The notes below the pieces were generated by a model. It ran no database searches. It saw nothing but the letters and a program-made list of their open reading frames with translations, and had not been told where the DNA came from. Shown piece after piece: positions 21,138 to 47,431 of a stretch of DNA of 64,000 bases. The stretch's first letter is position 1. Each line of letters starts with the position of its first letter. A program made the position numbers and the translations under genes. This DNA is from Clostridia bacterium (GTDB lineage: Bacteria > Bacillota > Clostridia > Monoglobales > Monoglobaceae), in contig JAZNBG010000035.1 in the NCBI GenBank assembly GCA_045586925.1, positions 6,417-70,416 of the forward strand. Reading direction: 5' to 3'.

Positions 21138-21198
21138 ATTACTAAGAAGTCGATATAACATTACAGATTATACTCAAACACAAATTAGTAAATCATAC

Positions 21199-21227
21199 TT
21201 GACTAATTTATTTTTATATGCTATAAT
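21199..21227 (+). promoter_or_regulatory. Sigma-A promoter of the defence gene cluster
   Basis: TTGACT (21199-21204), 17 nt, TATAAT (21222-21227). Confidence 0.55.
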
Positions 21228-21256
21228 GTAGATAACCTAAAATGGAGGTCATGTAT

Positions 21257-22648: not shown

Positions 22649-22649
22649 T

Positions 22650-24737: not shown

Positions 24738-24746
24738 GAGGAATAA

Positions 24747-25901: not shown

Positions 25902-26018
25902 TGATAGTCAGATGTGTGAAGTTTTTTGATTTGCATATACCAAGAGCTCAAAAAAACATAGACTTTAGATAAGATTGATGTTTAAGTGATTGAACTCTTC
26001 TTACAGGAGGGAATATAA

Positions 26019-28233: not shown

Positions 28234-28908
28234 ATGACATATGGATATGTTAGAGTGTCCTCAAGTGATCAAAATGTAGACAGACAATTAATTGAAATGG
28301 AAGGATTAACAATCCCCGTACAAAATATTTTTATAGATAAACAATCGGGTAAAGACTTTAAGCGCCCACAATATATTAAATTGCTTGAGGTTCTTAAAAA
28401 AGGTGATTTATTATATGTAAAGTCAATAGACCGTTTGGGGCGAAACTATAAAGAAATACTGGAACAATGGCAAATGCTGACTAAAGAAATGGAAGTTGAT
28501 GTTGTTGTAATAGATATGCCACTTTTAGATACACGAACTGCTAAAGATTTGCTCGGTACATTCATAGCGGACTTGGTTTTACAAGTGCTTTCTTTTGTGG
28601 CTCAAAGCGAGCGTGAAAACATAAAGAAACGCCAAGAAGAAGGCATAAAAGCTGCCAGACTTCGTGGCGTTAAATTTGGACGACCTGTTATTCCCGTGCC
28701 GGATAATTTTGAGTTTCTTGTTGAACAATGGGAACATGGGGAAATATCCGCCGATTATGTGGCTCAGAAAAGCGAAATGAGTGAATCAACCTTTTATAGA
28801 AGATTAAAAGAATTAAGGAAAAACACAAAACAAAAATCACTGTCAAATGGTACACTTTTTGACAGTGATTATTTTTTGTTGATATATACTGTTAAAAACA
28901 GATTTTAA
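28234..28908 (+). CDS. Small serine recombinase (resolvase/invertase family)
   Basis: Catalytic N-terminus YGYVRVSSSDQNVDRQ, SIDRLGRN, and a C-terminal HTH (SESTFYRRLKE). The last ~25 codons read through a terminator hairpin. Confidence 0.85.
   Translation: MTYGYVRVSSSDQNVDRQLIEMEGLTIPVQNIFIDKQSGKDFKRPQYIKLLEVLKKGDLLYVKSIDRLGRNYKEILEQWQMLTKEMEVDVVVIDMPLLDTRTAKDLLGTFIADLVLQVLSFVAQSERENIKKRQEEGIKAARLRGVKFGRPVIPVPDNFEFLVEQWEHGEISADYVAQKSEMSESTFYRRLKELRKNTKQKSLSNGTLFDSDYFLLIYTVKNRF
28835..28878 (+). terminator. Rho-independent terminator overlapping the resolvase 3' end
   Basis: 13-bp perfect stem AATCACTGTCAAA / TTTGACAGTGATT followed by ATTTTTTG. Confidence 0.7.
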
Positions 28909-29051
28909 CACAAAAATTATACTATATTCCCCTTGAAAAGTCAATTAAATGATTTTATTTCTTACCAATCTCCAGTTGAACTGCCTTTGTCAAAAAGTGT
29001 ACTTTTTGGTAAAGCTATCAAGTTATTAGCTAATGGAGGTGTTCGACAAGA

Positions 29052-29552
29052 ATGGAAAACAACAGAGAACAGGAACTGAGGAAGCATAGATGCTGTTTTA
29101 CAGGTCATAGACCTGATAAAATGATACAAGGCGAAAAAGAGATTAAACCGCTACTTGAGGCGGCTATAGATAAGGCAATAGCTGAAGGTTATGTAACTTT
29201 TTTAACGGGCATGGCAATGGGGACAGATATATGGGCTGCTGAAATAATTTTAGATAGAAAGAAAAAGAACAAAAATTTACATCTTATTTGCGCACTGCCG
29301 CATCCTGGCTTCGATAGCAAAAGAAGTGTTGCAGAGAAAATACGGTTTGCAAAAATACTAAAGAAAGCAGATATAGTAAGAGAAATAAGCAATCACTTCT
29401 TCAAGTCATGTTACCAAAAACGAAATGAATGGATGGTTGACAGATCAAATTTGGTTATAGCGGTATTCAACGGAGAACCAAGTGGGACTAAAAATACGGT
29501 CATTTACGCTCAAAGGAAGGGCGTAGAAATCAATAATGTTTTAAAAAACTAA
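29052..29552 (+). CDS. SLOG-fold protein of the DUF1273/YpsA family
   Basis: CCFTGHRP, FLTGMAMGTDIWAAE and the ALPHP pattern resemble B. subtilis YpsA-type SLOG proteins. Confidence 0.6.
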   Translation: MENNREQELRKHRCCFTGHRPDKMIQGEKEIKPLLEAAIDKAIAEGYVTFLTGMAMGTDIWAAEIILDRKKKNKNLHLICALPHPGFDSKRSVAEKIRFAKILKKADIVREISNHFFKSCYQKRNEWMVDRSNLVIAVFNGEPSGTKNTVIYAQRKGVEINNVLKN

Positions 29553-29637
29553 ATATACAAATACAACAAATCATTGACAACTTCATTATATTATTTTAAA
29601 GCAGTGGTAGAATATATACATAAAGGAGTTGTCGAAT

Positions 29638-30477
29638 ATGAAAAGAATTACAAACGAATTAATTAAGAAATTCAGAGAATATCTGTTAAGTGAAGAAAAG
29701 GCAGTAGCAACGATAGAAAAGTATATCCACGATGTTCTTGTGTTTATGACTTGGCTTGCAGGAGCAGAGGTTACCAAAATGGCAGTTCTTGAATATAAAC
29801 AGGAACTAACTGAGAAGTATGCTCCCACAAGTGTTAATGCCGCGCTTTCTTCGTTGAATAGTTTCTTTGTTTTCAATGAATGGTACGATTGTAAAGCGAA
29901 AGCTGTGAAAATTCAAAAGCAGATTTTTGCCAATAAAGAGAAGGAATTATCAAAGGCTGAATACGAAAGACTGCTTTTAGCGGCAAAACAAAAGAAAAAT
30001 CAAAGACTTTACTTTCTTATGCAGACGATATGCAGCACCGGGATACGTGTATCTGAGTTGAGATTTATAACAGTTGAAGCTGTTTTAAGAGGACAGGCAC
30101 ATATTAACTGTAAAGGTAAGATGCGGGTTGTTATTCTCACAAATCAACTCTGTAAAATGCTGAAGAACTATATAAAAGATAATAAAATAATAAGTGGCTC
30201 GGTTTTTGTTACTAAAACAGGTAAGCCACTTGATCGTTCTAATATATGGTCGGATTTGAAAAAACTCTGTGAATGTGCGGGAGTAGATAAAGAAAAAGTT
30301 TTTCCACATAATTTTAGGCATTTGTTTGCGCGCACTTATTATACTTTGCAAAAAGATATAGTTCGTCTTGCTGATATCCTCGGTCATTCCAATGTAAACA
30401 CTACAAGGATTTACACAATGGAAAGCGGAGAGATGCATCGCAAGCAATTGCAAAAACTTGGATTACTGATATGTTAA
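29638..30477 (+). CDS. Tyrosine site-specific recombinase (XerC/D-like)
   Basis: SAM-like N-terminal domain. Catalytic residues are in TGIRVSEL (Arg), HNFRHLFA (His-x-x-Arg) and GHSNVNTTRIYT (His, Tyr). ATG 29638 follows AAGGAG. Confidence 0.85.
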   Translation: MKRITNELIKKFREYLLSEEKAVATIEKYIHDVLVFMTWLAGAEVTKMAVLEYKQELTEKYAPTSVNAALSSLNSFFVFNEWYDCKAKAVKIQKQIFANKEKELSKAEYERLLLAAKQKKNQRLYFLMQTICSTGIRVSELRFITVEAVLRGQAHINCKGKMRVVILTNQLCKMLKNYIKDNKIISGSVFVTKTGKPLDRSNIWSDLKKLCECAGVDKEKVFPHNFRHLFARTYYTLQKDIVRLADILGHSNVNTTRIYTMESGEMHRKQLQKLGLLIC

Positions 30478-30819: not shown

Positions 30820-30847
30820 ATAGTGTAAACAAAAAGAGGTGTTACTA

Positions 30848-31417
30848 GTGCTTAGCGATGAACAGAGAGAACAGAAAAAGCAAGAATTGCTGGAAAAATG
30901 CTTTGAACTTTTCGTAAAACAAGGATTAGAGAATACCAGTCTGAACGAGTTGGTGGCATACTGCAATGTTCACAAATCAACTATGTATAGCTACTTGGCG
31001 TCAAAAGATGAGATTGTAATCGAATGTGCAAAAATGCATATGCTTGAACTTGATAAGATGTTCAGCAATGTATTTAAAAATCCACCAAATACACTTAAAG
31101 AAGTATTGCAACATGGTTTTGAAAAGATTGTAGAGGAAAAAAGTAAACTAAGGTTTGTATATCAGGTTATATCAAGTCCATTGTACGGAGAACAGGCACA
31201 AAAAGAGTTATCTTCAATTTATATGAAATATGTAGATTATTCTGAACCTATTGCAAAGATGTATAAGGTTGATGAAGCAGAATTTAGGACATGCTTTGTT
31301 TTATTTTTAAGTACAATGCATGACTATTGTATGTGGGGGAATGAATTCCTTGCTAGAGAAAAGTTGGTATACATATATAACAAGGTAACGGAATTAGACA
31401 AAAATAAAGCAAATTAA
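30848..31417 (+). CDS. TetR/AcrR-family transcriptional regulator
   Basis: N-terminal HTH LFVKQGLENTSLNELVAYCNVHKSTMYSYLASKDEI. GTG 30848 lies 8 nt after AGAGG; the ORF-track start at 30839 overlaps the RBS. Confidence 0.8.
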   Translation: MLSDEQREQKKQELLEKCFELFVKQGLENTSLNELVAYCNVHKSTMYSYLASKDEIVIECAKMHMLELDKMFSNVFKNPPNTLKEVLQHGFEKIVEEKSKLRFVYQVISSPLYGEQAQKELSSIYMKYVDYSEPIAKMYKVDEAEFRTCFVLFLSTMHDYCMWGNEFLAREKLVYIYNKVTELDKNKAN

Positions 31418-31432
31418 GGAGTTGTTTTTAAA

Positions 31433-32569
31433 ATGGCTATAATTGATAGAATAAAATATGATGGTCCACAAGATGCTTCGCCATGGTTGATTCACAAATA
31501 TCCAAGTGAAGAATTTGTTTTAGGTTCGCAGTTGATTGTAAATCAGGGACAAGAGGCTTTGTTCTTCAAAGGTGGAGAAGCACTCGATTTATTTGGTGCG
31601 GGAACTCACACTTTACATACGGGAAATCTACCCTTACTGAAAAAAATAGTTAATTTACCGTTTGGTGGAGAAACACCGTTCTCAGCAGAAATTTATTATA
31701 TTAATAAAACTTCAAAATTAGATATGAATTGGGGTACTGCAAACCCATTTCAGCTTGAAGATCCCAAATATGGTCTTATATTATCTATAAGATCACACGG
31801 CAAGTATGGATTGCGTATTACGGATTCAAGAATGTTTGTTAATGAGCTTGTTGGCGCTATTCCTAATGGTGCAACAGTAAACTATCCGTTTGTTGCAAGT
31901 TATTTTAGTGGTTTGTTAACTACATATGTAAAAACTGTTATTTCTAATTTTATGATAAAACAAAAGATTTCTTTTCTTGAGGTAACGGCGTACTTAAGGG
32001 AATTATCGGAAGAATGCCAAAAAGAGATTTCAAACGAGTTCGATAAATATGGTGTTGAAATACAAAATTTCTTTATTGAAGCTATTTCACCTCCAAAAGA
32101 AGAATTTGAAAAGCTTCGCACATATAAAGAAGAGTTGTCTTTGGGAAATGATTTCTATAAACAACGTCGTTCTTTTGATGTATTAGAAAAATTGGCAGAT
32201 AACCCCAATGCAGGTGGAATGGCTAATGCAGGAATCGGATTGGGTATGGGCTTAGGGGTCGCTCCTAATATGGGAAATATTTTTGGTGGAATTGGTGAAA
32301 ATACCATGAATATCAATGGTCAGACAGGCGCGCAAGGAAAAGTATGCCCTAAATGTTCTGCCCAGGTTGCTGAAGGATTAAAGTTCTGTGGTAATTGTGG
32401 GGAGAGGATTAGCAATTCGTTGATATGTCCATCATGCAATCATGAAAATCCTGAAAATACTAAGTTCTGTGGCAACTGTGGTCAAAAACTTGTAAACAAA
32501 TGCAGCGAATGTGGAACAGAGAACGATTTAGGTCAAAAATTCTGCGGTAATTGTGGAAATAAACTGTAA
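31433..32569 (+). CDS. SPFH/Band-7 domain protein with C-terminal triple zinc ribbon (YdjI-like)
   Basis: The N-terminal ~230 aa resemble B. subtilis YdjI (virion-core-like SPFH). A Gly/Met-rich linker is followed by CPKCSAQV..CGNCG, CPSCNHEN..CGNCG and CSECGTEN..CGNCG. Confidence 0.7.
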   Translation: MAIIDRIKYDGPQDASPWLIHKYPSEEFVLGSQLIVNQGQEALFFKGGEALDLFGAGTHTLHTGNLPLLKKIVNLPFGGETPFSAEIYYINKTSKLDMNWGTANPFQLEDPKYGLILSIRSHGKYGLRITDSRMFVNELVGAIPNGATVNYPFVASYFSGLLTTYVKTVISNFMIKQKISFLEVTAYLRELSEECQKEISNEFDKYGVEIQNFFIEAISPPKEEFEKLRTYKEELSLGNDFYKQRRSFDVLEKLADNPNAGGMANAGIGLGMGLGVAPNMGNIFGGIGENTMNINGQTGAQGKVCPKCSAQVAEGLKFCGNCGERISNSLICPSCNHENPENTKFCGNCGQKLVNKCSECGTENDLGQKFCGNCGNKL

Positions 32570-32589
32570 AAGAGGTGAAAAGACAGAAT

Positions 32590-35500
32590 ATGGGCAAATA
32601 TATAGCATATTTTTACATAGACAATCAATTAATGCAATTTGATCTCGACTTGTTGCTAAATAATTGTGTTGATAATTATTTAGGTGAATCAATTCTTCCG
32701 GTAGGAAGTAAGCAACTATTTCCCATTAAAACAGAGAATAAAAAATATTACCTTTATGGGAATTTTAGCAATTGGAAAATTGTTTGTAACGGAAGTGAAG
32801 TCGGAGAAAAAGTTGAAATATCACATGGAAGTTACATCAATTTTTCATCTAAGAAAAGCTCCTATTCTGTTTTGATATCAGAAACAGCTAACTTTAGTAT
32901 ATATAATAATTGTTTGGAAATTCAAAAAAATCAGAATATCTTTATAGGTAGGGCTCCGGAGAGCAACATTGTAATAGATATTAACGATAGTGTATCAAGA
33001 AAACATGCAGCAATAAGATTAGATGCATCAGGCAATGGCTTTGTTGAGGATTTGTCACGTAAAACAGGTGTTTTCCTAAATGGAAAAAGAATTGTTTCAA
33101 GCGAAATAAAATGTGGGGACATTATTCATATAATGGGTGTGTCTATATGTTTTATGGGGACATTTCTTGTTGTTCCTAAAAATATTGTTACAAACGGGAT
33201 GAAAGAGGTCAAGTCTTTTAATGTTGCGCAGCCAACAGATAAAGAGCTTGAAGATACTTATGCAAGGACACCAAGAATATTAAAGTCATTGGATAGAAAC
33301 AAAATAATTATAGATGCACCTACACAGCCTCAAAAATCCAAACAACAACCTTTTATTCTGGTTGCGGGACCTTCTGCGACAATGGCATTAGGTATGATGG
33401 CTAGTTTTGGAGTAACTTTAGCTAATGCACTGAATGGTGGAAACATATCTTCAACTATTACCGGTGGTGTAATGGTTATAAGTATGTTGTTGGGTTCTTT
33501 AATGTGGCCTTCTTTACTTAGAAATTACACTAAAAGACAAGAAATCGCAAATGAAAAGTATAGAGTAGAGAAATATAAATACTATTTGTCGGAAAAAGAA
33601 GCAGAAATAAGAAAATCCTACGAAAGAAATTGCAGAATATGGAATGAAAATCTTTTGCCAGCACCCGATAAATTGTCTCAAATTGTTTTTGAACGAGGTA
33701 TAAATCTTTGGGAAAGAACATTTACAGATGAGGACTTTCTGCAGGTTAGACTTGGAATAGGTGCCAAATTATTTGAAACAGAAATCCAACATCCAAATAA
33801 AGGCTTTACATTGCATGATGACGCATTGATAGATGAAGCAATAAACTTAGCAAACAAATATAAAATGTTAGAAAATGTTCCAATTAGCGTATCATTAATA
33901 AACCAAAGAACAGTTGGAATAGTTGGAGAAAGTGAAAAAATACATAATACACTTAGATGTATGATTCTAAACACGGTTGCACTTCACTCACCTGAGGATG
34001 TAAAGATTTGTGTTATTTGTAATGAACTTCAAATTGAGCAGGTAGAGTGGATAAAAGATTTGCCTCATTGTTGGGATTCTGCTAAAACAACACGATATTT
34101 TGCAACTAATAATATGGAAGCACAAAGACTGCTCAATGATATGGATGAGAAAATTCAAGAAAGAGAAGAATTGATTGACAAAGATGCAATCAGAACCCCT
34201 CATACCATAGTTGTTGTTTTGGATGAAAAAGTAGTTGAAAATATACCTTTTTATAGATACTTAATTGATTCCAAAAACAATGTAGGCATATCCTCTATTT
34301 TTATTGCAGAACACTTTAATAGAATACCTAAAGAGTGTACTGCAATAATTCAAAACGAAAAAGATATATGCGGAATTTATACAAAGAATGAAAACGATAA
34401 TAGATTTGTTTGTTTCAAATCTGATGAGTTTAAACTGACGGATGCTAAAAAAATCAGTCAGAGTATGTCTGAGATTCCGGTTAAGGTTGAGAAAACAAAA
34501 CTTAGTGTTCCTAACCGTGTATCATTTTTGGATATGTATAAGGTGGGAAATATTGAGAATCTTTCAATTGAACAAAAATGGGCAAATAATATGTCAGACA
34601 AAACGCTTGCTGTTCCTATTGGAATAAAAGCAGGCGGAGAATTGTTCTGTTTGGATATACACGAAAAACACCATGGTTGTCACGGATTAGTTGCCGGAAT
34701 GACAGGCTCGGGTAAAAGTGAATTTTTACAGGCATTTATATTATCAGCATTAATTAATTTTAGTCCTAATGAAATTGCATTTGTACTGGTGGACTTTAAA
34801 GGTGGAGATATGGCTCGACCATTTTTGAAGGTTCCGCATCTTTCTGCAACTATATCAAATCTATCCGAAAATATTTTGTATAGAGCATTGATTTCTTTGG
34901 AGGCAGAAGTAAAATCAAGACAAAAAATATTTAATGAAGCCGCATCATTGTTGGGCATTGATAAAATTGATATTAATTCATACCATAAATATTTTAAGGA
35001 AGGTAGATTAACATTACCATTACCACACTTAGTAATTGTAATAGATGAGTTTGCACAATTGAAATCTCAACAACCTGAATTCATGGCTAAACTTGTTGAA
35101 ATAGCTCAGGTCGGAAGAAGTTTAGGAATTCATCTGATATTAGCAACGCAAAAACCGAGCGGTGTTGTTGATCCGCAAATATGGAGCAACTCAAGATTTA
35201 AAGTATGTTTGAAAGTGTTGGATAAGCAGGATAGTACGGAAATGATAAACAGACCGGATGCTGCTTTAATTAAATCTCCTGGACGTGCTTATGTTCAGGT
35301 CGGCTATGATGAAATTTTCGAACAGTTACAGTCAGGTTATAGCGGTGCTGATTATGTTGAACAAAAAGAGTATACAGATGATGAAGATGTAACAATAAAA
35401 CTTATAGATTCTGCTGCTATGCCAATTAGAAGCGCTCGTAGTATATCAGGAAATCTTAAGAGTGGTAAGACACAGTTAGAAGAAACTATAAATAAGATTG

Positions 35501-37239
35501 TTGAAATCGCTGATGAAAAGGGATTAAGTGTAAAGCCTTTGTGGTTGGAGCCACTAAAGGAAACAATATATCTTACAGAATGTGTTGATAAGTTATACAC
35601 AGATTCTTTCGAAATTTGTTGGGATCAAGATTTAGATATCTCAACTACATTGGGAATCATCGATATAATTGAAACACAGAAACAGATACCTTTAAATATT
35701 TCATTGCCGCAGAGCGGACATATTGCTATTTATGGTTCTTCTGGAACTGGAAAGACTACATTGTTACAAACAATTATTTTCTCGCTGGCAACAAAATATT
35801 CACCGGAACTGTTAAACATTTTTGCTTTTGATTTTGGCGGACGCAATTTAGGGAATTTATCGCTTCTTCCGCATTGCGTTAACGTAGCTTTTGGCGATGA
35901 AGAGGACAAAATTTCATATATGTTTGAGCAGATACTTGAATGTATCGAATCAAGAAAAGTTTTGTTTGCAAAAAATAACTGCGCTACATATGAATCGTAT
36001 TTAGCAACAACAAAAAATAAACTTCCTGCAGTTCTTTTGGTGCTGGATAACTATGCTATATTCAGAGAAAAAATGTTCAAGAATGAAGATGATTTAGTTA
36101 GAATTGTTGCTAATGCAAAGGCGTACGGAATATATTTGATCGTTACAGGAAATAGCAAGAATGCAATTTATTACAAAGTTTCTGAACACATATCAAATAA
36201 TATTACTTTGCGTATGAATGATAAAATGAATTACCGTGATATATTAAATGTTTCTATACCTATTGAACCTGATAATATCAAAGGAAGAGGGTTGACAGTC
36301 TTTAATAAAAAAGCGGTAGAAATTCAGGCAGCACTTCCGTTGGAAGCAGAGAACGAGGCTGACAGAGCTGAAAAGCTGAACAAAATATACACTGCTATGT
36401 CACAGGCATATAACGGAACCAATGTGGCTAGTGTTTACTCTTCTTCAACTGAAAATAGTAAATCTAATATTTCAGAAGAAAATAGTACAATTAAAACATC
36501 TGTTATTTCAACAAGGAAAGTTCCGTCAACACTTCCTATTGTTAATGCTGATGATCATACAATTGTTTGTGGTTCTTCTGTTGTAAGCGGTCAGCTTCAA
36601 GGGTTTGAAATGCGTAATACTACAAATGTATTTATAGGTGTTAATGGTTCTGAATATCCAAATCGATTGCTTGAAAGAATTATTAATTTAAACAATGCTG
36701 CATTTTACGATATTTGCTCCTCATCATCGTTAGAAGGTGAATTTATTACATCGGTAAATACGGAATCTGAAATTCATGAAATGCTTCAAAATCTCGTTTA
36801 TGAAGTTAATGATCGAGAGAGTGAACTTCAAATGTTGCAGGCTGCGAATGTCGATGATTCTGAAGTATACGGATATATGCAAAAATATAAGAGGATTTTC
36901 TTGTTGATAAGAAGTTTCTCTAAGTTCTATGATGAGATAAGTGATGATGATTTAAAATTGTTGTTGACAATGTTGAAGAAGCAACGTCATCTAGGTATAT
37001 ATATTCTCACCATAGATGATATTGAAAGTATAGAACCATATTGTGATACAGCTTTATACATTGAATTAATAAAAACCGAAAAAGGCGTTGTTCTTGGTGG
37101 CAATATTAGTGATAAACAGGCGGCTCGATTGTGTAAACAATTCTCTGAAATACCTGTTGCAGAAAGAAACAAGAAACTGTCTGATAACAATGCATTTATG
37201 TATAATGATGCAAAATGGTCAGTAATTGAAATCAATTAA
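32590..37239 (+). CDS. essC: FHA-domain FtsK/SpoIIIE-family ATPase, EssC/EccC-like type VII secretion translocase
   Basis: FHA motif IGRAPESNIVI..SVSRKHAAI..TGVFLNGKRI, then two TM helices. P-loop 1 is GMTGSGKSE with VIDEF. P-loop 2 is GSSGTGKTT with LVLDNY. A third ATPase-like region lacks a P-loop lysine. ATG 32590 was chosen; GTG 32575 is an alternative. Confidence 0.85.
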   Translation: MGKYIAYFYIDNQLMQFDLDLLLNNCVDNYLGESILPVGSKQLFPIKTENKKYYLYGNFSNWKIVCNGSEVGEKVEISHGSYINFSSKKSSYSVLISETANFSIYNNCLEIQKNQNIFIGRAPESNIVIDINDSVSRKHAAIRLDASGNGFVEDLSRKTGVFLNGKRIVSSEIKCGDIIHIMGVSICFMGTFLVVPKNIVTNGMKEVKSFNVAQPTDKELEDTYARTPRILKSLDRNKIIIDAPTQPQKSKQQPFILVAGPSATMALGMMASFGVTLANALNGGNISSTITGGVMVISMLLGSLMWPSLLRNYTKRQEIANEKYRVEKYKYYLSEKEAEIRKSYERNCRIWNENLLPAPDKLSQIVFERGINLWERTFTDEDFLQVRLGIGAKLFETEIQHPNKGFTLHDDALIDEAINLANKYKMLENVPISVSLINQRTVGIVGESEKIHNTLRCMILNTVALHSPEDVKICVICNELQIEQVEWIKDLPHCWDSAKTTRYFATNNMEAQRLLNDMDEKIQEREELIDKDAIRTPHTIVVVLDEKVVENIPFYRYLIDSKNNVGISSIFIAEHFNRIPKECTAIIQNEKDICGIYTKNENDNRFVCFKSDEFKLTDAKKISQSMSEIPVKVEKTKLSVPNRVSFLDMYKVGNIENLSIEQKWANNMSDKTLAVPIGIKAGGELFCLDIHEKHHGCHGLVAGMTGSGKSEFLQAFILSALINFSPNEIAFVLVDFKGGDMARPFLKVPHLSATISNLSENILYRALISLEAEVKSRQKIFNEAASLLGIDKIDINSYHKYFKEGRLTLPLPHLVIVIDEFAQLKSQQPEFMAKLVEIAQVGRSLGIHLILATQKPSGVVDPQIWSNSRFKVCLKVLDKQDSTEMINRPDAALIKSPGRAYVQVGYDEIFEQLQSGYSGADYVEQKEYTDDEDVTIKLIDSAAMPIRSARSISGNLKSGKTQLEETINKIVEIADEKGLSVKPLWLEPLKETIYLTECVDKLYTDSFEICWDQDLDISTTLGIIDIIETQKQIPLNISLPQSGHIAIYGSSGTGKTTLLQTIIFSLATKYSPELLNIFAFDFGGRNLGNLSLLPHCVNVAFGDEEDKISYMFEQILECIESRKVLFAKNNCATYESYLATTKNKLPAVLLVLDNYAIFREKMFKNEDDLVRIVANAKAYGIYLIVTGNSKNAIYYKVSEHISNNITLRMNDKMNYRDILNVSIPIEPDNIKGRGLTVFNKKAVEIQAALPLEAENEADRAEKLNKIYTAMSQAYNGTNVASVYSSSTENSKSNISEENSTIKTSVISTRKVPSTLPIVNADDHTIVCGSSVVSGQLQGFEMRNTTNVFIGVNGSEYPNRLLERIINLNNAAFYDICSSSSLEGEFITSVNTESEIHEMLQNLVYEVNDRESELQMLQAANVDDSEVYGYMQKYKRIFLLIRSFSKFYDEISDDDLKLLLTMLKKQRHLGIYILTIDDIESIEPYCDTALYIELIKTEKGVVLGGNISDKQAARLCKQFSEIPVAERNKKLSDNNAFMYNDAKWSVIEIN

Positions 37240-37255
37240 ATAGGAGGTGTATAAT

Positions 37256-38044
37256 ATGAATTTTTCTGACAAATCTTTACATTTAACATATGATGAGTTT
37301 TATGCATTAATGTGTTTGTTAGGTGCAAAAAGTGTTCAAGGAACTTTTGTTGAAAATCATAATAATATATCTCCAAATGATTTCGAGAATATATGGGCAG
37401 TCTGCGAAAAATCACTGATTTCTAAAGGATATATGACATTAGACGGTGAGGATTTGCAGCTGGATATTAGTTTATATAGCATTATAACAGCATGTGTGAA
37501 TGCCGAAAGAAAATATAGTGTACAATTGTCAAAAGATAAATCCAATATTATTGATACAGTTTTTTATGATGGAAATAAGGCAATGGTATGTATCAATAAT
37601 TGTGATGAAAAGAAAGAGGTTTATTTAAGTTATTGCAATAAAAAGAAATCTTTTGATAATGTGGTTAAGGAAATTCCGGATATTACACAAAATATGCTTA
37701 ACGAAAAATCTGCTGAAATTACCCTTTCACAGCAGGAATATTTCACACTCATGTCTAGTGCTAATTTGGGGGACTATACCAAGGCTCGAAATCTATTCCC
37801 TGATGATATGGAAGAAGAATATTTAATGGATTTGATAAACACATTAAAAAATTCTTATGGGTTACTATCGGTTAATGAATTTGAAGATGAGGAAATTAGC
37901 ACTTACAGCATTTTATTTGGAAAAGAATCTTTATGGGCTATTTATGCACAGGATGAAGAAACAATATCCTTTAAATTGGTATCCAAAACTGATTTAGAAG
38001 ATAGCCTCGCGCAAACTTTTGGTTATGACGGAGGTGGCAAATAA
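37256..38044 (+). CDS. Soluble acidic protein of unknown function (possible EspG-like secretion chaperone)
   Basis: No TM segments. The N-terminal LTYDEFYALMCLLGAK loosely recalls the EspG N-terminus. Its position between the essC-like and yukD-like genes is suggestive. ATG 37256 follows AGGAGG. Confidence 0.25.
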   Translation: MNFSDKSLHLTYDEFYALMCLLGAKSVQGTFVENHNNISPNDFENIWAVCEKSLISKGYMTLDGEDLQLDISLYSIITACVNAERKYSVQLSKDKSNIIDTVFYDGNKAMVCINNCDEKKEVYLSYCNKKKSFDNVVKEIPDITQNMLNEKSAEITLSQQEYFTLMSSANLGDYTKARNLFPDDMEEEYLMDLINTLKNSYGLLSVNEFEDEEISTYSILFGKESLWAIYAQDEETISFKLVSKTDLEDSLAQTFGYDGGGK

Positions 38045-38045
38045 A

Positions 38046-38303
38046 ATGACTGAAAAAATTACGTTATCGGTATGTGTACTAGGAATTAATAAAAATTGTG
38101 ATTTTTCTGTTCCGACAAATATGTCAGTTAGAGAAGCAATTAAGTTAATGAAAAAGGTGATAACCGAAGAATATTGGGGTAACTCACCTATGCCAAAGAG
38201 CAGAATGAATTTGATGAAGTTGTCTGATCTTGAGGTATTAAATGATTCATTGAGTTTTGCCCAACTCGGTATTTCAAGTGGAGAAAGATTGATTTTTGTT
38301 TAA
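38046..38303 (+). CDS. YukD/EsaB-like ubiquitin-fold T7SS protein
   Basis: 85 aa. The pattern CDFSVPTNMSVREAIKLM ... LGISSGERLIFV parallels B. subtilis YukD (which ends CGITNGDRLEIL). ATG 38046 follows GGAGG. Confidence 0.65.
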   Translation: MTEKITLSVCVLGINKNCDFSVPTNMSVREAIKLMKKVITEEYWGNSPMPKSRMNLMKLSDLEVLNDSLSFAQLGISSGERLIFV

Positions 38304-38317
38304 GGAGTGTAAAAAAT

Positions 38318-38614
38318 ATGGCAACGTTTAGAATTAACTATTCAAGAGTTATTTCGCAAGCTAACTCTATGAATAATTTAAGTGGCGATCTTTCTTCTGA
38401 AATACGTAGGTTAGAAAATATGTTAAGCGAAGCTCGAAGTAATTGGAAAGGTCCAGCATCAGAAACATTTCAAAGACAATTAAGTAATTTAATAGGAGAT
38501 ATGAAGAACACAAAAAGTAAAATGTCAAGTGTTTCAAGTACAATTAAGAGTGTCGCAAGAAGGATACAAGCAGAAGATGAGCGAGCTGCTGAAAGAGCAA
38601 AAAAACTGAAATAA
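38318..38614 (+). CDS. WXG100-family protein (paralogue 1)
   Basis: 98-aa helical hairpin with a central W-K-G (SNWKGPASETF). Confidence 0.7.
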   Translation: MATFRINYSRVISQANSMNNLSGDLSSEIRRLENMLSEARSNWKGPASETFQRQLSNLIGDMKNTKSKMSSVSSTIKSVARRIQAEDERAAERAKKLK

Positions 38615-38632
38615 GAATTTGGAGGTGGAAAT

Positions 38633-38743
38633 ATGGAAGCTGCGGCTGCAACACCGATTAATTCAGTAGCAAGTACAGTGGTACCTATAGCGGTTGCTGT
38701 GCTTGTTGGAGTGGCAATTTTCGCTTTTTTAAGGCGAAAGTAA
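38633..38743 (+). CDS. 36-aa single-pass membrane peptide (not in the ORF track)
   Basis: ATG 38633 lies 6 nt after GGAGGTGG. It reads MEAAAATPINSVASTVVPIAVAVLVGVAIFAFLRRK: a hydrophobic helix followed by an RRK anchor. Confidence 0.5.
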   Translation: MEAAAATPINSVASTVVPIAVAVLVGVAIFAFLRRK

Positions 38744-38809
38744 AGATTAACTTAGGGTTATAAAATAATTATTATAACAAAATTATTTTTCGAAAGGAGC
38801 AAATTTATT

Positions 38810-39121
38810 ATGGCAAACGCATGGTCAGTAACCACAGAAAGACTTACATCTTCTGCAAACATTTTGGAGGAAAAAGTCGCAACGTACAATTCAGAATGGG
38901 GCAAACTTTACACAGAGGTTCAGAATTTAAAATCCTCACAGTGGCAGGGTATCGCAAGTGATGCATTCAACGCAAAACTTGAGTCCTACAAAAATGATTT
39001 TGAAGAATTAGCAAAAGTATTGAACAGCTATAAAGATTTCTTGAAATCAGCAGCAGAAAGATATGAGAAAACAGAAGAAGCAGTAAAAGATGCAGCTGGA
39101 AATCTTAATGCCGGAATATAA
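38810..39121 (+). CDS. WXG100-family protein (paralogue 2)
   Basis: 103 aa with central W-Q-G (SSQWQGIASDAF) and a C-terminal YEKTE (YxxxE) motif. Confidence 0.8.
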   Translation: MANAWSVTTERLTSSANILEEKVATYNSEWGKLYTEVQNLKSSQWQGIASDAFNAKLESYKNDFEELAKVLNSYKDFLKSAAERYEKTEEAVKDAAGNLNAGI

Positions 39122-39145
39122 ATAAAATTTTAGGAGGATTTTAAA

Positions 39146-39445
39146 ATGGCTACAATTAAAGTTGATTCAACAGTAATGAGAGACAAAGCAGGCACATTTA
39201 AGAATGTTGCTAACACAATAAAAAATTTAACAGATGAAATGACTCAGGAGATAGAAAGTTTACGTTCAGCATGGGAAGGCGAATCCGCTGAAGCAACTGT
39301 ATCAAAATTTAAAAGTTTAGCTTCAACATTTGAAGAAAAGTTCAATACAATTAACCAGTATGCATCTTTCCTTGAGGAAGCAGCTAATGCTTATGACGAT
39401 GCAGAAAAGGCTGTCGCTCAGGGAGCAGAAGGCACACAGGCTTAA
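39146..39445 (+). CDS. esxA: WXG100-family protein, EsxA-like (paralogue 3)
   Basis: 99 aa with central W-E-G (SAWEGESAEA) and a C-terminal YDDAE (YxxxE) motif. Strong AGGAGG RBS. Confidence 0.8.
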   Translation: MATIKVDSTVMRDKAGTFKNVANTIKNLTDEMTQEIESLRSAWEGESAEATVSKFKSLASTFEEKFNTINQYASFLEEAANAYDDAEKAVAQGAEGTQA

Positions 39446-39461
39446 TTTGAAGTTTGATAAA

Positions 39462-39506
39462 CACAGAGGCATATAAAATGCATATCTGAAATTATATGTC
39501 TCTGTG
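39462..39506 (+). promoter_or_regulatory. Intercistronic 15-bp stem-loop after the esxA-like gene
   Basis: CACAGAGGCATATAA / TTATATGTCTCTGTG (one G-U pair) with a 15-nt loop and no T-run. It is flanked by GAAGTTTGA direct repeats. Confidence 0.5.
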
Positions 39507-39531
39507 AAGTTTGAATTAAGGAGGTGTAAAG

Positions 39532-40791
39532 GTGCCTTACATAAAAGTTGACACAAGGAGATTATCCAACTTTGGAAATGTTGCATCTTCTACAAGAGGT
39601 AGAGTTGGTAATATAAAATCTTCATTTTCCTCTATTGGGAGTTCTCTTGATTGGGATGTAAAGGCTTGTTCTGGTATCAATAGGACAATAAGCCAAATTA
39701 ACAACGAACTTTCAGCAGAGATGTCGAGTTTAAGGAGAATTGAAACTTTTTTTGATTTGGCAGTTAGGAAATATAATGACGCCGAAAAATCCAAAGAAAA
39801 ACTATCAAAAATTCCTCAAACGAGAAGGGTAGCTACTCTTGGTCCAGGAGGTAGAATGAATAATACAACTAAAAATGTTGCATTATTATCTGTTTATAAA
39901 AATAACAAAGCCAGTATAACATCCCAGGTAAAAGTGAAAGAAAATTCCGAATGGACAAAACTTCTCAAGAAAATAGCAAAAAAAGCAGGTTTCGCTGGCT
40001 CCATTTACGGAATTTTAAGTGGAGAATCTGAAACCATTCAACATATAAAAGATGGAGAATATGCAAAAGCGATGCAGAGCTTTGCTGGAGTGGCGAAAGG
40101 TGTAATTAAAACTGTTCCAAAGATATTTGATAAATATGGAAAGATGAAAAAAGCATCCCATTTATTGACCCCTATGCAGAAATTAAAAAATTGGGGGAAA
40201 TCAATAGTTGGATTAGATGATATGATAAAAGCACCTTCAAAAGCTTCAAAAGTAACATCAAGAATCTATAATAATATGCAAAAGTTAGATATAAAAAAAC
40301 TTGGCAAGGTTACGAAGTGTGATGTTATTATAAGTAGCATTGTAAGTATTATTGGTAATGCCTCTGAATATATGGAAGGCAAGATAAGCGCTGCGAGAGC
40401 GGCAGCTGAAACCATTGGAGAAACTGTAATAGAAATTGGAAAAACCGCACTACTGTATAAAGTAGTTGGTGTTGCTGCAACTGCTGTAGCAAGTGCTGCA
40501 GGCATAGCTGCTGTTCCTGCAATTGCAGTAGCCGGTGCTGTAGTTGTGATTAGTTGGGGCATTGATAAGTTGACAGAAAAACTAACAGGAAAAAATTTCA
40601 CTGAATGGTTATCTGATGGAATAATTGATGTTGCTTCATACGTCGGCAAGTCAGTGAAACAGGTTGCAAATACTGTAGTTCCAGCAATTCGTAATACCTG
40701 TACCAATGTTATAAACAAGGCTGGTGAATTCTTCGGAAACGTAAAAAATGGCGTGAATAATTTCTTTGGAAAATTAAGATTTGCATTTTAA
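39532..40791 (+). CDS. Putative T7SS substrate: N-terminal WXG100/LXG-like helical domain fused to a C-terminal Gly/Ala-rich membrane-active region
   Basis: The N-terminal ~85 aa form a helical hairpin with the turn LDWDVKA and YNDAE (YxxxE). The C-terminus has AAETIGETV..LLYKVVGVAATAVASAAGIAAVPAIAVAGAVVVISWGI, a glycine-zipper-like hydrophobic hairpin. GTG start after AAGGAGG. Confidence 0.5.
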   Translation: MPYIKVDTRRLSNFGNVASSTRGRVGNIKSSFSSIGSSLDWDVKACSGINRTISQINNELSAEMSSLRRIETFFDLAVRKYNDAEKSKEKLSKIPQTRRVATLGPGGRMNNTTKNVALLSVYKNNKASITSQVKVKENSEWTKLLKKIAKKAGFAGSIYGILSGESETIQHIKDGEYAKAMQSFAGVAKGVIKTVPKIFDKYGKMKKASHLLTPMQKLKNWGKSIVGLDDMIKAPSKASKVTSRIYNNMQKLDIKKLGKVTKCDVIISSIVSIIGNASEYMEGKISAARAAAETIGETVIEIGKTALLYKVVGVAATAVASAAGIAAVPAIAVAGAVVVISWGIDKLTEKLTGKNFTEWLSDGIIDVASYVGKSVKQVANTVVPAIRNTCTNVINKAGEFFGNVKNGVNNFFGKLRFAF

Positions 40792-40809
40792 AAAAAGGAG
40801 TGAATTTAA

Positions 40810-41079
40810 ATGATTAAAGATTTATTGCCGGTTGGTAGTGTAGTTTTACTTAAAGGTGGCATAAAAAAGTTAGTTATTATGGGGATTAAGCAGGCTAACG
40901 CTGAAGAACCTGATGTTGAATATGACTATGCAGGAGTAATGTATCCAGAAGGATATTTGGGAAATGATACCCTTTACCTTTTTAACCACGCTGATATAAA
41001 TGATATTATTTTTACTGGATATACCAATCCTGAACGTGATGAGTTTTTATTAGAAGTAGAAAAATTATACAATGATTAA
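40810..41079 (+). CDS. DUF4176-like small protein (family commonly encoded in Firmicute T7SS loci)
   Basis: The opening LLPVGSVVLLKGGIKKLVIMG and the size (89 aa) fit DUF4176 as I recall it. Confidence 0.55.
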   Translation: MIKDLLPVGSVVLLKGGIKKLVIMGIKQANAEEPDVEYDYAGVMYPEGYLGNDTLYLFNHADINDIIFTGYTNPERDEFLLEVEKLYND

Positions 41080-41863
41080 TGCAGTTGCTTTTTCAAATGT
41101 TGGGAATATCAGGAGTAACCACGAAGACAATTATTTACTTGGCGTTGGCAACCACATTGACGAAGTGATACAGAGGCAAATGAGAAATAATCTCTACATG
41201 CAGAAATCCACCTATACGGGTGATGCAGGTGTATTTGCAGTTTGTGATGGTATGGGTGGACATGCTTCTGGAGAGGTTGCAAGTTATGCAGCTATTTGCT
41301 GGTTAAACAATAAAGCTAATTTATTGCTGAATTCTCAACCTACAGAAATAATCAGTTGCATAACAGAATTGAATTCACATATATGTAATGAAGCTGATAA
41401 ATCCTCATGTTGTAACAACATGGGAAGTACTTTAAGTGCAATGATAATCAATGGCAGAAGTATTCATACCATTAATGCCGGAGATAGCCGTATATATTCC
41501 TTTAAAAATGATAAATTATCACAGATAACTACAGACCACACTGAGGGACAGCGATTATTGGACCTTGGATTACTTACAATGAATGAGTTGCCAGAATTTT
41601 CGTCACGAAAATCGTTATATAAGTACTTGGGACGAAAGGGAGAATTGATAGCTGATGTAGTAGATATTAGTGGTAGTGATGGGTTGTATATGATCTGCAG
41701 TGACGGCCTTACGGATGCACTTAATGATTGCGAAATTGAGGGAATATTTTTAAAACGTGATTCAATTTCGGATATCGGACAAGAGCTAATGGATTCTGCT
41801 TTAGCGAAAGGAAATTTATGTGCTGATAATGTGACGTTATTATTAGTTGAAATATCTTACTGA
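41072..41863 (+). CDS. PP2C-family Ser/Thr protein phosphatase
   Basis: AVCDGMGGHASGEVAS, GDSRIY and ICSDGLTD metal-binding motifs. Overlaps the upstream gene by 8 nt. Confidence 0.85.
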   Translation: MINAVAFSNVGNIRSNHEDNYLLGVGNHIDEVIQRQMRNNLYMQKSTYTGDAGVFAVCDGMGGHASGEVASYAAICWLNNKANLLLNSQPTEIISCITELNSHICNEADKSSCCNNMGSTLSAMIINGRSIHTINAGDSRIYSFKNDKLSQITTDHTEGQRLLDLGLLTMNELPEFSSRKSLYKYLGRKGELIADVVDISGSDGLYMICSDGLTDALNDCEIEGIFLKRDSISDIGQELMDSALAKGNLCADNVTLLLVEISY

Positions 41864-43653
41864 TGAAAGAAGGGATAAATTTGATAGGAAAAACCATTTT
41901 AGGTTATACCATTGAGGAAGAAATTGGTTCGGGTGGTTTTGGAACAGTTTATAAGGCTTATAAAAGGGACGAATCCGGAACATTTATTAGAGCAATTAAA
42001 CATATATCCCTTCCTACAAAAAAACAATACAACGATGTACTAAATTCAATGGGTGGAGATTATGCTAAGGCAGATAACTATTTCAATGATATATTGAACG
42101 ATCTCGTCAGCGAAATAAAGATATTATATAATCTTACAGAGCAAGGAGTTCTAAACGTTGTAAGATATACTGATCACCACATTGAGAAACAACAGAACCC
42201 TATCAAATATGATATATACCTTTCTATGGAATATCTAACACCATTTGACGAATATATCCAAACAAGCAAACTTGCGGTTAGGGATGTTATAAAATTAGGA
42301 AAGGATATTTCAGCTGCACTTATCGCTTGCCATAAGAATACCATTATGCATCGAGATATTAAAGATGAAAACATCTTTGTATCTAACGATGGCACATATA
42401 AATTAGGAGATTTTGGGGTTTCAAAAAAAATGCAAGACAGCTCAAGGGCTGAAAGTATGAAAGGTACACCTAATTATATCGCACCTGAAGTGTATTTAGG
42501 AAAAGGCAAATATGATTGCACTGTCGATATATACTCATTGGGGATTGTATTATACAAGCTTCTCAACTATAATCGTAATCCGTTTTTGCCTGAATATCCG
42601 TTGGAATACAATAGTGTAGATGAAGATAAAGCTTTTGAAATGCGTATGAAAGGAGATACGCCTCCTGCTCCGCTTAATGCAAACAATAAACTTGGCGAAG
42701 TAATTTTGAAAGCTATAAGCATTAGAGAAAATCGCTATAACGATGCAGCCGAGCTATATGAATGCTTAAATGAAATCGAAAAAAGCTTAACAAACGAGGA
42801 ACTTAATAAGGTTGTTATATCTCCAATAAAGAATATTGTTGATAAAAAGCCTGAACCTACACCACAGATTCAGAGTGACAAAAATTTAAAAGAAACTATT
42901 GGTGAAGATTATAATGTAACCAATCAGGAAGAAAAAGAGACAGGAAATGGCGCTCTTTTTGAAACTCATGGAGATGATTATACTCCTCCGGTAATAAAAA
43001 GAGAAGAGTCCCAAACAGAATCTATAGTAACAAAGGACGAAGAAGCAGAAGATTGCATAGAAGATGTTGAACAGGAAAAGCCATTAGTGAAAACAAAAAC
43101 AAGAAAGAAAACTTTGCTATATGTCGGCATGGTTTTGGCTGTATTTGTAGCATTGCTTGGATTTAAAATAGCAAACAATATAATGTCAAAAGATAATTGG
43201 ACCGGATTTAGTCATGTATATAATGTTACTGCTGAAGGAAAATATGCAGACGGAAAAAGCGAAGATGAAACAGGAGAAAAATTTGAAATAGATTCAGAGA
43301 CAATTAAAATGGCTTTGGAAGATAATATTCCTAAAAAATTGCCATTAGATCAAGAATATAACTTTGAATTTACAATATATTCACCTGATATGCCAGAGAG
43401 CATAATGGTTTTAGCCGGTAAAGGTGGCGGATATGTTAATTTCGAATATATATCTTGTGCAGAGGAAACAAGCAAGGCATATATAAAATTTCCGTGGGAG
43501 TTTCAAAGTAACCTTAATGGAGAAACTCTGTATTCCCCAGGAGAGAAAATTAGATTTAGAATTGTGGTAGAATACAGAACGAAAAACGATGATGGTTCTA
43601 CTCGTTATGAGAAAATCTATCTTGATAAAACAGCTTTAACATTAACAAAATAA
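41863..43653 (+). CDS. Hanks-type Ser/Thr protein kinase 1 (single TM, extracytoplasmic C-terminal domain)
   Basis: GSGGFGTVYKA, AIKHI, HRDIKDENIF, GDFGVS and YIAPEV. TM segment LLYVGMVLAVFVALLGF. TGATG overlap with the phosphatase gene. Confidence 0.9.
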   Translation: MKEGINLIGKTILGYTIEEEIGSGGFGTVYKAYKRDESGTFIRAIKHISLPTKKQYNDVLNSMGGDYAKADNYFNDILNDLVSEIKILYNLTEQGVLNVVRYTDHHIEKQQNPIKYDIYLSMEYLTPFDEYIQTSKLAVRDVIKLGKDISAALIACHKNTIMHRDIKDENIFVSNDGTYKLGDFGVSKKMQDSSRAESMKGTPNYIAPEVYLGKGKYDCTVDIYSLGIVLYKLLNYNRNPFLPEYPLEYNSVDEDKAFEMRMKGDTPPAPLNANNKLGEVILKAISIRENRYNDAAELYECLNEIEKSLTNEELNKVVISPIKNIVDKKPEPTPQIQSDKNLKETIGEDYNVTNQEEKETGNGALFETHGDDYTPPVIKREESQTESIVTKDEEAEDCIEDVEQEKPLVKTKTRKKTLLYVGMVLAVFVALLGFKIANNIMSKDNWTGFSHVYNVTAEGKYADGKSEDETGEKFEIDSETIKMALEDNIPKKLPLDQEYNFEFTIYSPDMPESIMVLAGKGGGYVNFEYISCAEETSKAYIKFPWEFQSNLNGETLYSPGEKIRFRIVVEYRTKNDDGSTRYEKIYLDKTALTLTK

Positions 43654-47422: not shown

Positions 47423-47431
47423 AGGTGTGGA

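Follow-up and report, generated by a model that had tools for sequence, protein, structure and literature searches.

This analysis concerns an operon with the features of a type VII secretion system (T7SS), found in a 64-kb stretch of contig JAZNBG010000035.1 from a Clostridia bacterium (the window; all coordinates are window positions). T7SSs are a major Gram-positive route for interbacterial toxins and virulence factors. The operon runs from 30839 to ~51556 entirely on the + strand, with tightly spaced or overlapping genes and an unchanged strand throughout, inside a low-GC block (~0.33) that spans ~19-56 kb against a background of 0.41-0.43. The original prediction, made from the letters of this DNA, had described one unidirectional operon; the single strand was correct, but the operon does not stop at 41079. 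A scan for promoters and terminators gave no enrichment over shuffled sequences and did not delimit the operon bounds. The genes of the operon are as follows (TM, transmembrane; E, expectation value):

30839-31417, + strand: TetR-family regulator at the operon head (TetR_N, E 1.9e-8)
31433-32569, + strand: YdjI-like SPFH/zinc-ribbon protein (Band_7_1, E 3.2e-44; Zn_Ribbon_1/DZR)
32590-37239, + strand: EssC-type motor ATPase, 1549 residues from its ATG (TIGR03928; FHA; FtsK_SpoIIIE)
37253-38044, + strand: EspG-fold chaperone-like protein, 263 residues (fold comparison)
38046-38303, + strand: YukD/EsaB-like ubiquitin-fold protein (Pfam YukD, E 2e-4, below the gathering score)
38318-38614, + strand: WXG100 paralogue 1, with WKG (WXG100, E 2.3e-12)
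38633-38743, + strand: single-TM peptide of 36 residues (Kyte-Doolittle score 2.73)
38810-39121, + strand: WXG100 paralogue 2, with WQG (WXG100, E 6e-14)
39146-39445, + strand: WXG100 paralogue 3, with WEG (WXG100, E 2e-14; also PPE, E 1.3e-7)
39532-40791, + strand: basic WXG-fusion protein of 419 residues (hhalign, N-terminus against the WXG3 family)
40810-41079, + strand: DUF4176 protein (DUF4176, E 1.5e-24)
41072-41863, + strand: PP2C/PPM Ser/Thr phosphatase (PP2C, E 4e-11)
41863-43653, + strand: membrane Hanks-type Ser/Thr kinase 1 (Pkinase, E 6e-42)
43699-45585, + strand: membrane Hanks-type Ser/Thr kinase 2 (Pkinase, E 6e-43)
45603-46196, + strand: zinc-ribbon and TPR protein, 197 residues (TPR and DZR matches)
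46229-47422, + strand: protein with a zinc ribbon, one TM segment and a degenerate beta-lactamase fold (Beta-lactamase2, E 4e-16; Zn_Ribbon_1)
47432-48445, + strand: membrane-anchored protein of beta-lactamase/penicillin-binding-protein fold (Beta-lactamase2, E 8e-31)
48519-49976, + strand: protein with a zinc ribbon, four TM segments and a PH-like domain (Zn_Ribbon_1, E 1e-8; TM scan)
50061-50720, + strand: PH/PTB-like fold protein, 219 residues (fold comparison)
50764-51294, + strand: YidD-domain membrane fusion protein (YidD, E 6e-18)
51317-51556, + strand: membrane protein of 79 residues at the end of the operon (Imm_superinfect, E 5e-4, below the gathering score)

The operon contains a tandem-ATPase motor of the EssC/EccC type, WXG100 proteins and a YukD/EsaB-like protein, which together make it a T7SS locus.

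The EssC motor, the kinases and the missing EssB, EsaA and EssA

EssC scored 1019.8 bits against the NCBIfam model TIGR03928 'T7_EssCb_Firm' (cut-off 778.4) and matched the Pfam families FHA (E 1.4e-15) and FtsK_SpoIIIE (E 5e-61, in three stretches). Its domain order is FHA, two adjacent hydrophobic segments (~254-281 and 284-311), a DUF domain, the ATPase domains D1 and D2, each with a Walker A motif (GMTGSGKS at 703 and GSSGTGKT at 1049), and a degenerate D3. The P-loop lysine motif was not found in D3, where the sequence reads GVNGSEYP, and a Pfam search of the isolated domain gave no match. The profile, motif and TM scans therefore agree with the protein as originally predicted (1549 residues, FHA domain, two TM helices, two P-loops and a third ATPase domain without the lysine). 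Structural matches were obtained to YukB (9qks, E 1e-133) and to EccC and EssC structures. A conjugative FtsK-like DNA translocase was considered and ruled out: the equivalog cut-off for EssC is passed, and the YukD, WXG100 and DUF4176 genes adjoin.

The FHA domain of EssC carries the phosphothreonine-binding residues GR (G120-R121), SxxH (S136-x-x-H139) and NG (N164-G165). Across 119 EssC proteins of the family the R and the N are invariant, while the S is present in 117 and the H in 90. According to Table S1 of Garrett et al., GR, SxxH and NG are found in ~100% of TsdC, TseC and TsjC, the motors of kinase-linked subtypes, whereas among 100 EssC proteins of T7SSb (TsbC) GR and SxxH occur in 0% and NG in 21% (PMC11217815). 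By this motif criterion the window EssC is grouped with the kinase-linked systems and not with T7SSb. The grouping agrees with its identity of 30-34% to canonical T7SSb EssCs, with which the alignment is restricted to residues ~216-1486 and leaves the FHA region unaligned; within its own family, identity is at least 42% over essentially the full length.

EssB/YukC, EsaA and EssA were searched for in all operon open reading frames (ORFs), with zero matches in Pfam (E<=0.1) and in NCBIfam (E<=1 or 0.1), and the sampled larger host and island ORFs outside the operon likewise gave none. As a control, the proteins of an annotated canonical T7SSb locus of Listeria (L014) were compared with a six-frame translation of the whole window: Listeria EsxA, EssC and DUF4176 matched their window counterparts (E 2e-9, 5e-179 and 5e-14, respectively), and Listeria EsaA, EssA, EssB and EsaB matched nothing at E<=10. 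It had been predicted that no ORF of the locus resembles the three membrane proteins. The profile searches, which did detect DUF4176 (E 1.5e-24) and SPFH, support this, and none of the previously unassigned operon ORFs proved to be an EssB or EsaA homologue in Pfam or NCBIfam. The prediction had not reached the two kinases encoded downstream of 41079, both of which share the topology of EssB (a cytoplasmic kinase fold followed by TM helices) and show no sequence similarity to EssB models.

Judged by their motifs, these EssB-topology proteins are true, catalytically intact Hanks kinases: the G-loop, AxK, HRDxKxxN, DFG and APE motifs are all intact in both. Over their first ~400 residues the two are 65% identical; their C-terminal regions are unrelated and, searched in isolation, gave no Pfam match. 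Kinase 1 has one TM segment (418-436) and a unique C-terminal domain of ~160 residues, and is an extra paralogue. Kinase 2 has hydrophobic segments at 427-445 and 478-496 and a conserved C-terminal domain; its full-length orthologues are 39-89% identical in the loci that hold the complete gene, which marks it, on sequence grounds, as the conserved kinase of this T7SS variant. A kinase duplication was also seen in the related locus L013 (18797-22425), independent of that in the window, with copies that share the kinase domain and linker. The PP2C protein scored 159 bits against NCBIfam Stp1_PP2C, below the cut-off.

Accessory and secreted-type proteins and their conservation

The comparison set was composed of 11 further distinct loci among L001-L013 (L003/L004 and L005/L006 are duplicates), which makes 12 with the window. 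A scan of genome contigs for EssC yielded two close loci, and the distant loci were reached by protein searches followed by contig look-ups. EssC homologues of 41-98% identity numbered 190 at E<=1e-20 among the candidates scored (best 120 listed); the relatives include Clostridia metagenome-assembled genomes, Cytobacillus firmus, C. citreus, Sporosarcina globispora and Paenibacillus aurantiacus (RefSeq). EssC identity to the window ranges from 42 to 91% across L001-L013.

In the loci that reach far enough 3', the gene order is EssC (with FHA), the EspG-like gene where present, YukD, three WXG100 genes, a WXG-fusion gene (324-430 residues), DUF4176 and a membrane kinase. With the window counted, an SPFH/zinc-ribbon gene was found immediately or a few genes 5' of essC in 10 of the 12 loci, and PP2C in 11 of the 12, L008 being the exception. 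The TPR/zinc-ribbon and PH-like genes occur in most loci. Where the arrangement is of the Clostridia type they lie 3' of essC; three loci of the Bacilli type (L007, L010 and L011) have them between essC and the SPFH gene, and the accessory genes are thus kept in the locus despite rearranged gene order. A YukD-like orthologue follows EssC in all related loci, either directly or past the EspG-like gene (assigned by homology in L001-L008, by alignment in L009-L011, and by size and position in L012-L013). The TetR regulator has its sole homologue among the related loci in L001. The recurrence of this gene set in 11 other loci, in which EssC identity falls as low as 42%, supports the view that the composition is a conserved alternative and not a decayed T7SSb.

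The loci L008 (5618-20135) and L012 (6549-20132) form an SPFH-less sub-variant of the same EssC family, with a zinc-ribbon/TPR/NPCBM fusion instead and several multi-zinc-ribbon proteins downstream (YARHG, DUF2752, lectin).

The SPFH protein was predicted to be YdjI-like and to be encoded directly 5' of essC, which is borne out by Band_7_1 and by a glycine-rich linker followed by three C-terminal zinc ribbons. A TM scan found no TM-like segment. It thus has the architecture of YdjI/SamI proteins: Band_7_1, no TM anchor, a C-terminal zinc finger and membrane partners encoded nearby. SPFH orthologues are 53-96% identical where measured, and this identity follows and exceeds that of EssC (96/89/76/64/53% for SPFH versus 91/73/49/46/42% for EssC).

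In place of EssB, EsaA and EssA the original prediction had listed the SPFH protein, the 263-residue protein, the 36-residue peptide and several zinc-ribbon membrane proteins. This list turned out to be incomplete or wrong in part; it had missed the defining additional parts, namely the two Hanks kinases, the PP2C phosphatase, the TPR/zinc-ribbon protein and the PH-like family. The TPR/zinc-ribbon protein (197 residues) is a conserved component of the system, with orthologues in L001, L004-L007, L010 and L011 and a family of 115 representative clusters at E<=1e-30. The PH/PTB-like family of the 219-residue protein is conserved, and the majority of its orthologues are membrane-anchored; the protein encoded at 48519-49976 aligns with this family and is a paralogue of the 219-residue protein. 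The 36-residue TM peptide is present, and L001 is the one related locus in which a homologue was seen.

The 263-residue protein had been described as acidic and soluble; its isoelectric point (pI) is indeed 4.4, but its fold had been missed. It matches EspG1, EspG3 and EspG5 structurally over its full length and has the EspG chaperone fold. When profiles of the EspG-like, PH-like and YukD-like families were searched against PDB sequences, no match reached significance (those of the YukD-like family were ubiquitin-like), and the EspG-like and PH-like families were resolved by fold comparison alone. The YukD-like protein scored 22.3 bits against a Pfam gathering score of 27. Its predicted ubiquitin fold is upheld by its orthologues, seven of nine of which match YukD (best E 1e-6), and a weak match to the N-terminal domain of EccD was obtained.

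All three predicted WXG100 paralogues were recovered (E 2e-12 to 2e-14) and pass the cut-offs of Pfam WXG100 and TIGR03930. WXG1 (WKG) is basic (pI 10.5) and has no YxxxE, and is a candidate for the EsxA-like core protein. WXG2 (WQG) and WXG3 (WEG) are acidic, carry YEKTE and YDDAE, respectively, near the C-terminus, and are 37-90% and 37-89% identical across loci. A C-terminal YxxxE had been ascribed to WXG2, WXG3 and the 419-residue protein; this holds for the first two, but in the 419-residue protein the motif (YNDAE, residues 81-85) marks the end of an N-terminal WXG-like domain.

Profile-profile comparison revealed the WXG-like nature of the 419-residue protein, whose family has no Pfam LXG match: the N-terminal ~90 residues match the WXG3 family (hhalign probability 93.6%, E 2e-7) and hold a conserved LDW and YxxxE/D. 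The protein (pI ~10) continues with a variable middle, an Ala/Gly-rich hydrophobic hairpin at 307-344 and a loosely conserved tail; the hairpin hints that the protein may insert into membranes or form pores. The gene follows that of WXG3 in all aligned loci, and the protein is 50% identical in L001, where EssC is 91% identical. The order of two WXG100-like genes, the 419-residue protein and DUF4176 mirrors the Lap-Lap-LXG-DUF4176 cassette of T7SSb, and the DUF4176 family is a class of chaperones for LXG effectors (PMC12482557). The 419-residue protein is accordingly a candidate LXG-like, membrane-active substrate. The 79-residue membrane protein at the end of the operon (51317-51556), with its sub-threshold superinfection immunity match, is a possible immunity candidate for it.

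Comparison with known secretion systems and interpretation

Subtypes T7SSc to T7SSj were defined by Garrett, Higginson and Palmer (Microlife, 2024; PMC11217815). Several of them are devoid of EssB, EsaA and EssA and encode a membrane kinase (TsxD), a PPM phosphatase (TsxF), FHA domains, EspG-like proteins and zinc-ribbon TM proteins (PMC11217815). The idea of a T7SS without EssB, EsaA and EssA but with kinases, phosphatases and a phosphothreonine-competent FHA domain is thus already published (PMC11217815). The distinct apparatus first proposed for this locus is supported by the 11 further loci, but the concept behind it is not new. What is new here is a conserved composition outside the a-j catalogue: SPFH, TPR, PH-like and EspG-like proteins, the kinase/PP2C pair and a fixed WXG-fusion cassette.

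The component list matches no published subtype. T7SSj and T7SSe come closest. Like the window, both encode an FHA-EssC with GR, SxxH and NG, together with the membrane kinase TsxD, the PPM phosphatase TsxF, the YukD-like TsxB, at least two WXG100 proteins and the zinc-ribbon TM proteins termed TsxK. Unlike them, the window has the SPFH/zinc-ribbon protein, a separate TPR/zinc-ribbon protein, PH-like and EspG-fold proteins, and the fixed cassette WXG2-WXG3-(WXG-fusion)-DUF4176. T7SSc (B. anthracis, Brevibacillus, Paenibacillus) shares an EssB-topology membrane kinase, a PPM phosphatase, an EspG-like TscG, YukD and WXG100, but its TscC is without FHA, and it has the vWA protein TscE, a single WXG100 protein and no SPFH protein; in the window, EssC has an FHA domain and no vWA match was found. 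The T7SSf components TsfV (TadZ-like AAA+) and TsfJ gave no matches, and the window has two kinases, whereas T7SSf is kinase-free. With T7SSb (S. aureus Ess, B. subtilis Yuk and Listeria) the window shares the EssC architecture, YukD/EsaB, WXG100, DUF4176 and a TIGR03928 score above the cut-off; it differs by the absence of EssB, EsaA and EssA, by the phosphothreonine-type FHA domain and by an EssC identity of only ~30-34%.

Outside the T7SS subtypes, the type VI PpkA/PppA/Fha pathway has the same logic: assembly of a secretion machine is controlled by a Hanks kinase in the membrane, together with a PP2C phosphatase and a protein that reads the mark through FHA (PMC11217815). The machine is unrelated, and in the window the reading FHA domain is part of the motor ATPase itself. 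The S. aureus flotillin FloA, which interacts with EssB, promotes or scaffolds T7SS assembly (PMC5718613). FloA is a housekeeping, membrane-anchored flotillin encoded elsewhere, whereas here a Band_7_1 SPFH gene lies within the T7SS operon. YdjI of B. subtilis, also an SPFH protein, is soluble, ends in a zinc finger that follows a low-complexity linker, and depends on the membrane proteins YdjG/H; SPFH proteins of this type have a part in the Psp response to membrane stress (PMC8581546). The window SPFH protein shares this YdjI/SamI architecture but has no PspA partner in the operon. The secreted-type cassette resembles the LXG cassettes of T7SSb (Lap1-Lap2-LXG-DUF4176) in its two small WXG100-like genes 5', its helical N-terminal targeting domain and DUF4176 immediately 3', and the locus resembles the EspG-PE/PPE arrangement of T7SSa in having an EspG-fold chaperone. 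Unlike LXG cassettes, it has no Pfam LXG match, is fixed in the core operon of every locus, and has no evident immunity gene.

Literature searches (T7SS with SPFH; EssC with FHA, PP2C and WXG100), which covered part of Supplementary Data 2 of Garrett et al., found no paper with this arrangement. Only Garrett et al. were found to describe subtypes beyond a and b, and the few other papers that use the subtype names showed no sign of a further subtype.

On balance, we favour the reading that the operon of ~30.8-51.6 kb encodes a self-contained, probably phosphorylation-gated T7SS variant of the Bacillota, belonging to a conserved family that the published component lists do not match. Its status as a subtype is provisional and is set apart from c-j by component lists. 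A more far-reaching version is put forward tentatively: the family could be an eleventh self-contained T7SS subtype, widespread in gut Clostridia and present in some Bacilli, in which a dedicated SPFH scaffold and a kinase/PP2C pair read by the EssC FHA domain replace the EssB/EsaA/EssA core, one conserved membrane-inserting WXG-fusion protein is exported, and horizontal spread can take place on a recombinase-driven element whose target is a sporulation gene expressed in the forespore.

In the proposed mechanism, the membrane kinase (of the kinase 2 type) would stand in for the EssB pseudokinase of T7SSb, partnering the FHA domain of EssC at the membrane, and would phosphorylate a threonine on itself or on a partner. 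The FHA domain would read this mark and thereby license assembly or activation of the motor, and PP2C would reset the phosphorylation, by the logic of type VI PpkA/PppA/Fha. The zinc-ribbon, TM and PH-like proteins may recruit the SPFH protein to the membrane, as YdjG/H do with YdjI, where it could scaffold or confine the complex as FloA does for the S. aureus T7SS. Among the predicted substrates, WXG1 would be the EsxA-like core substrate, and WXG2 and WXG3 (with YxxxE) would act as Lap- or EsxB-like targeting partners of the 419-residue membrane-active substrate, which the DUF4176 and EspG-like chaperones would hold export-competent.

If this reading is correct, the natural pairing of a motor FHA domain with a real kinase and phosphatase makes a 'phospho-gated T7SS' directly testable, the SPFH gene in the operon turns the FloA-T7SS link of S. 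aureus into a genetic rule, and the published a-j catalogue is extended. Some hosts of the family are named Bacilli with sequenced genomes (Cytobacillus firmus, Sporosarcina globispora and Paenibacillus aurantiacus), and assemblies of gut metagenomes contain the family often.

Several points weigh against it. Secretion, phosphorylation and phosphothreonine binding by the FHA domain are all inferred, and genes for EssB, EsaA and EssA could lie beyond the 64 kb of the window. L008 and L012 are without the SPFH gene and L008 also without PP2C, so that SPFH and PP2C are not universally required, and the EspG-like gene was detected in some loci only. Since no immunity gene is evident adjacent to it and its overall architecture is conserved, the 419-residue protein may be a structural or membrane component and not a toxin. 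Finally, the EssC family could be a branch of T7SSe or T7SSj.

This last possibility, which we regard as unlikely, would make TsxI and TsxJ lost or encoded elsewhere and the SPFH, TPR and PH-like proteins lineage-specific accessories. The shared parts (FHA-EssC, membrane kinase, PPM phosphatase, YukD, extra WXG100 and zinc-ribbon TM proteins) and an FHA motif pattern identical to that of TsdC, TseC and TsjC speak for it; in addition, TseK is a zinc-ribbon single-TM protein and TsjD has a TPR domain (PMC11217815). Against it, no large Ig-like signal-peptide protein (TsxI) was found in the window ORFs scanned or in the precomputed Pfam lists of the related loci, and the largest operon ORFs besides EssC are the kinases of ~600 residues; for TsxJ (DUF6382 and FHA), DUF6382 gave no match at E<=0.1 in the operon ORFs and none in the same Pfam lists. 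Furthermore, five RefSeq EssC accessions of the family are not among the published TsxC lists, and the terms 'SPFH', 'band 7' and 'DUF4176' are absent from the supplements of Garrett et al., in both cases as far as the searched parts of that material extend.

An ordinary T7SSb with a split locus is improbable. Here EssB, EsaA and EssA would lie elsewhere in the genome, of which only 64 kb was inspected, and the kinase, phosphatase and SPFH genes would be unrelated to secretion; EssC does pass the NCBIfam equivalog cut-off for T7SSb-type EssC. Its low identity to T7SSb EssCs, confined to residues ~216-1486 without the FHA region, and its GR and SxxH motifs (0% in 100 T7SSb EssCs) argue otherwise, and across 12 loci the accessory genes remain in the locus, at EssC identities as low as 42% and despite changes in gene order.

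Nor do we give much credence to the SPFH, zinc-ribbon, TPR, PH-like, kinase and PP2C genes being an independent membrane-stress or anti-phage module (YdjGHI/Psp-like) beside a minimal EssC/WXG100 cassette, as the Psp role of YdjI-like proteins (PMC8581546) and the defence genes of the island (Kiwa, and a type I restriction-modification methylase and specificity subunit) might suggest: a Pfam search found no PspA among the operon ORFs, PADLOC returned no match for the SPFH, TPR, PH-like, Zn485, 419-residue and EspG-like proteins and only generic matches for the kinases, the FHA motifs of EssC co-occur with a kinase as in other T7SS subtypes, and adjacency is kept in L005, L010 and L011, which have no recombinase or transposase nearby.

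An essC locus on a plasmid of Agathobacter rectalis (L015) was rejected as a comparator, with a separate FHA protein, Imm59 genes and no annotated kinase or SPFH genes. This locus of a gut Lachnospiraceae plasmid (NZ_CP143948.1, 4609-11854) encodes YukD, the separate FHA protein (228 residues), a shortened EssC, WXG100 and Imm59 proteins; EssB, EsaA and EssA are not annotated in the fetched stretch, and it is another non-canonical arrangement.

The spoVAD element and other genes

The entire T7SS operon is carried by an element inserted in spoVAD, which is bounded as follows:

19144-55712, no strand assigned: low-GC element of 36,569 bp, inserted in spoVAD
53898-55580, + strand: large serine recombinase at the right end of the element (Resolvase, Recombinase, Zn_ribbon_recom and DUF4368)

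The GC content of the element is 0.334, against 0.414 and 0.428 in its flanks. The interrupted gene is flanked by spoVAC and spoVAE and is split in two parts (18519-19166, matching positions 1-207 of the SpoVAD Pfam profile, and 55697-56104, matching 201-328). In-silico joining of the flanks at a shared CCTG removes 36,569 bp and restores a SpoVAD ORF of 338 residues. The element is therefore skin-like: as with skin (sigK), SPbeta (spsM) and gin (gerE), it interrupts a sporulation gene whose ORF is recovered by a precise join, and it has a large serine recombinase at one end. It differs from these in its target, spoVAD, and in its cargo of a secretion system and defence genes. The spoVA operon of B. 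subtilis is expressed in the forespore and not in the mother cell, and to our knowledge the known intervening elements of sporulation genes reside in mother-cell genes. A literature search found no paper pairing spoVAD with an intervening element.

The operon had been thought to be mobile cargo, which is true of this copy. As recombinase and transposase genes are missing from the surroundings of L005, L010 and L011, however, the T7SS variant is not intrinsically island-borne.

Upstream of the operon the element carries, at 19266-27585, a Gp49-like toxin gene and genes for a transglutaminase-like protein and an ATPase_2/DUF234/Mrr_cat protein, together with the type I methylase and specificity subunit; the Kiwa system is composed of KwaA (26019-26660) and KwaB (26653-27585).

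Within the operon, the beta-lactamase-fold pair (46229-48445) is window-specific, without homologue in the related loci searched (L001-L008 for the protein at 47432-48445). The protein at 47432-48445 retains the SxxK, SDN and KTG motifs, and the domain at 46229-47422 is degenerate, with both SxxK and KTG missing; the two could be accessories for cell-wall remodelling or sensing. The protein encoded at 50764-51294 combines a YidD domain (membrane protein insertion efficiency factor) with an N-terminal extension that has two TM segments.

A module of resolvase, YpsA (SLOG) and tyrosine integrase genes lies just 5' of the T7SS operon (28234-30477), and the operon may be a smaller mobile cassette nested within the spoVAD element. 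Homologues of the resolvase and integrase (74% and 72% identity) occupy the same position in L003 (6217-8556) with a YpsA-domain gene between them, a homologue of the window integrase is also present in L001 (7031-7894), and a second tyrosine recombinase is encoded in the window at 52675-53535.

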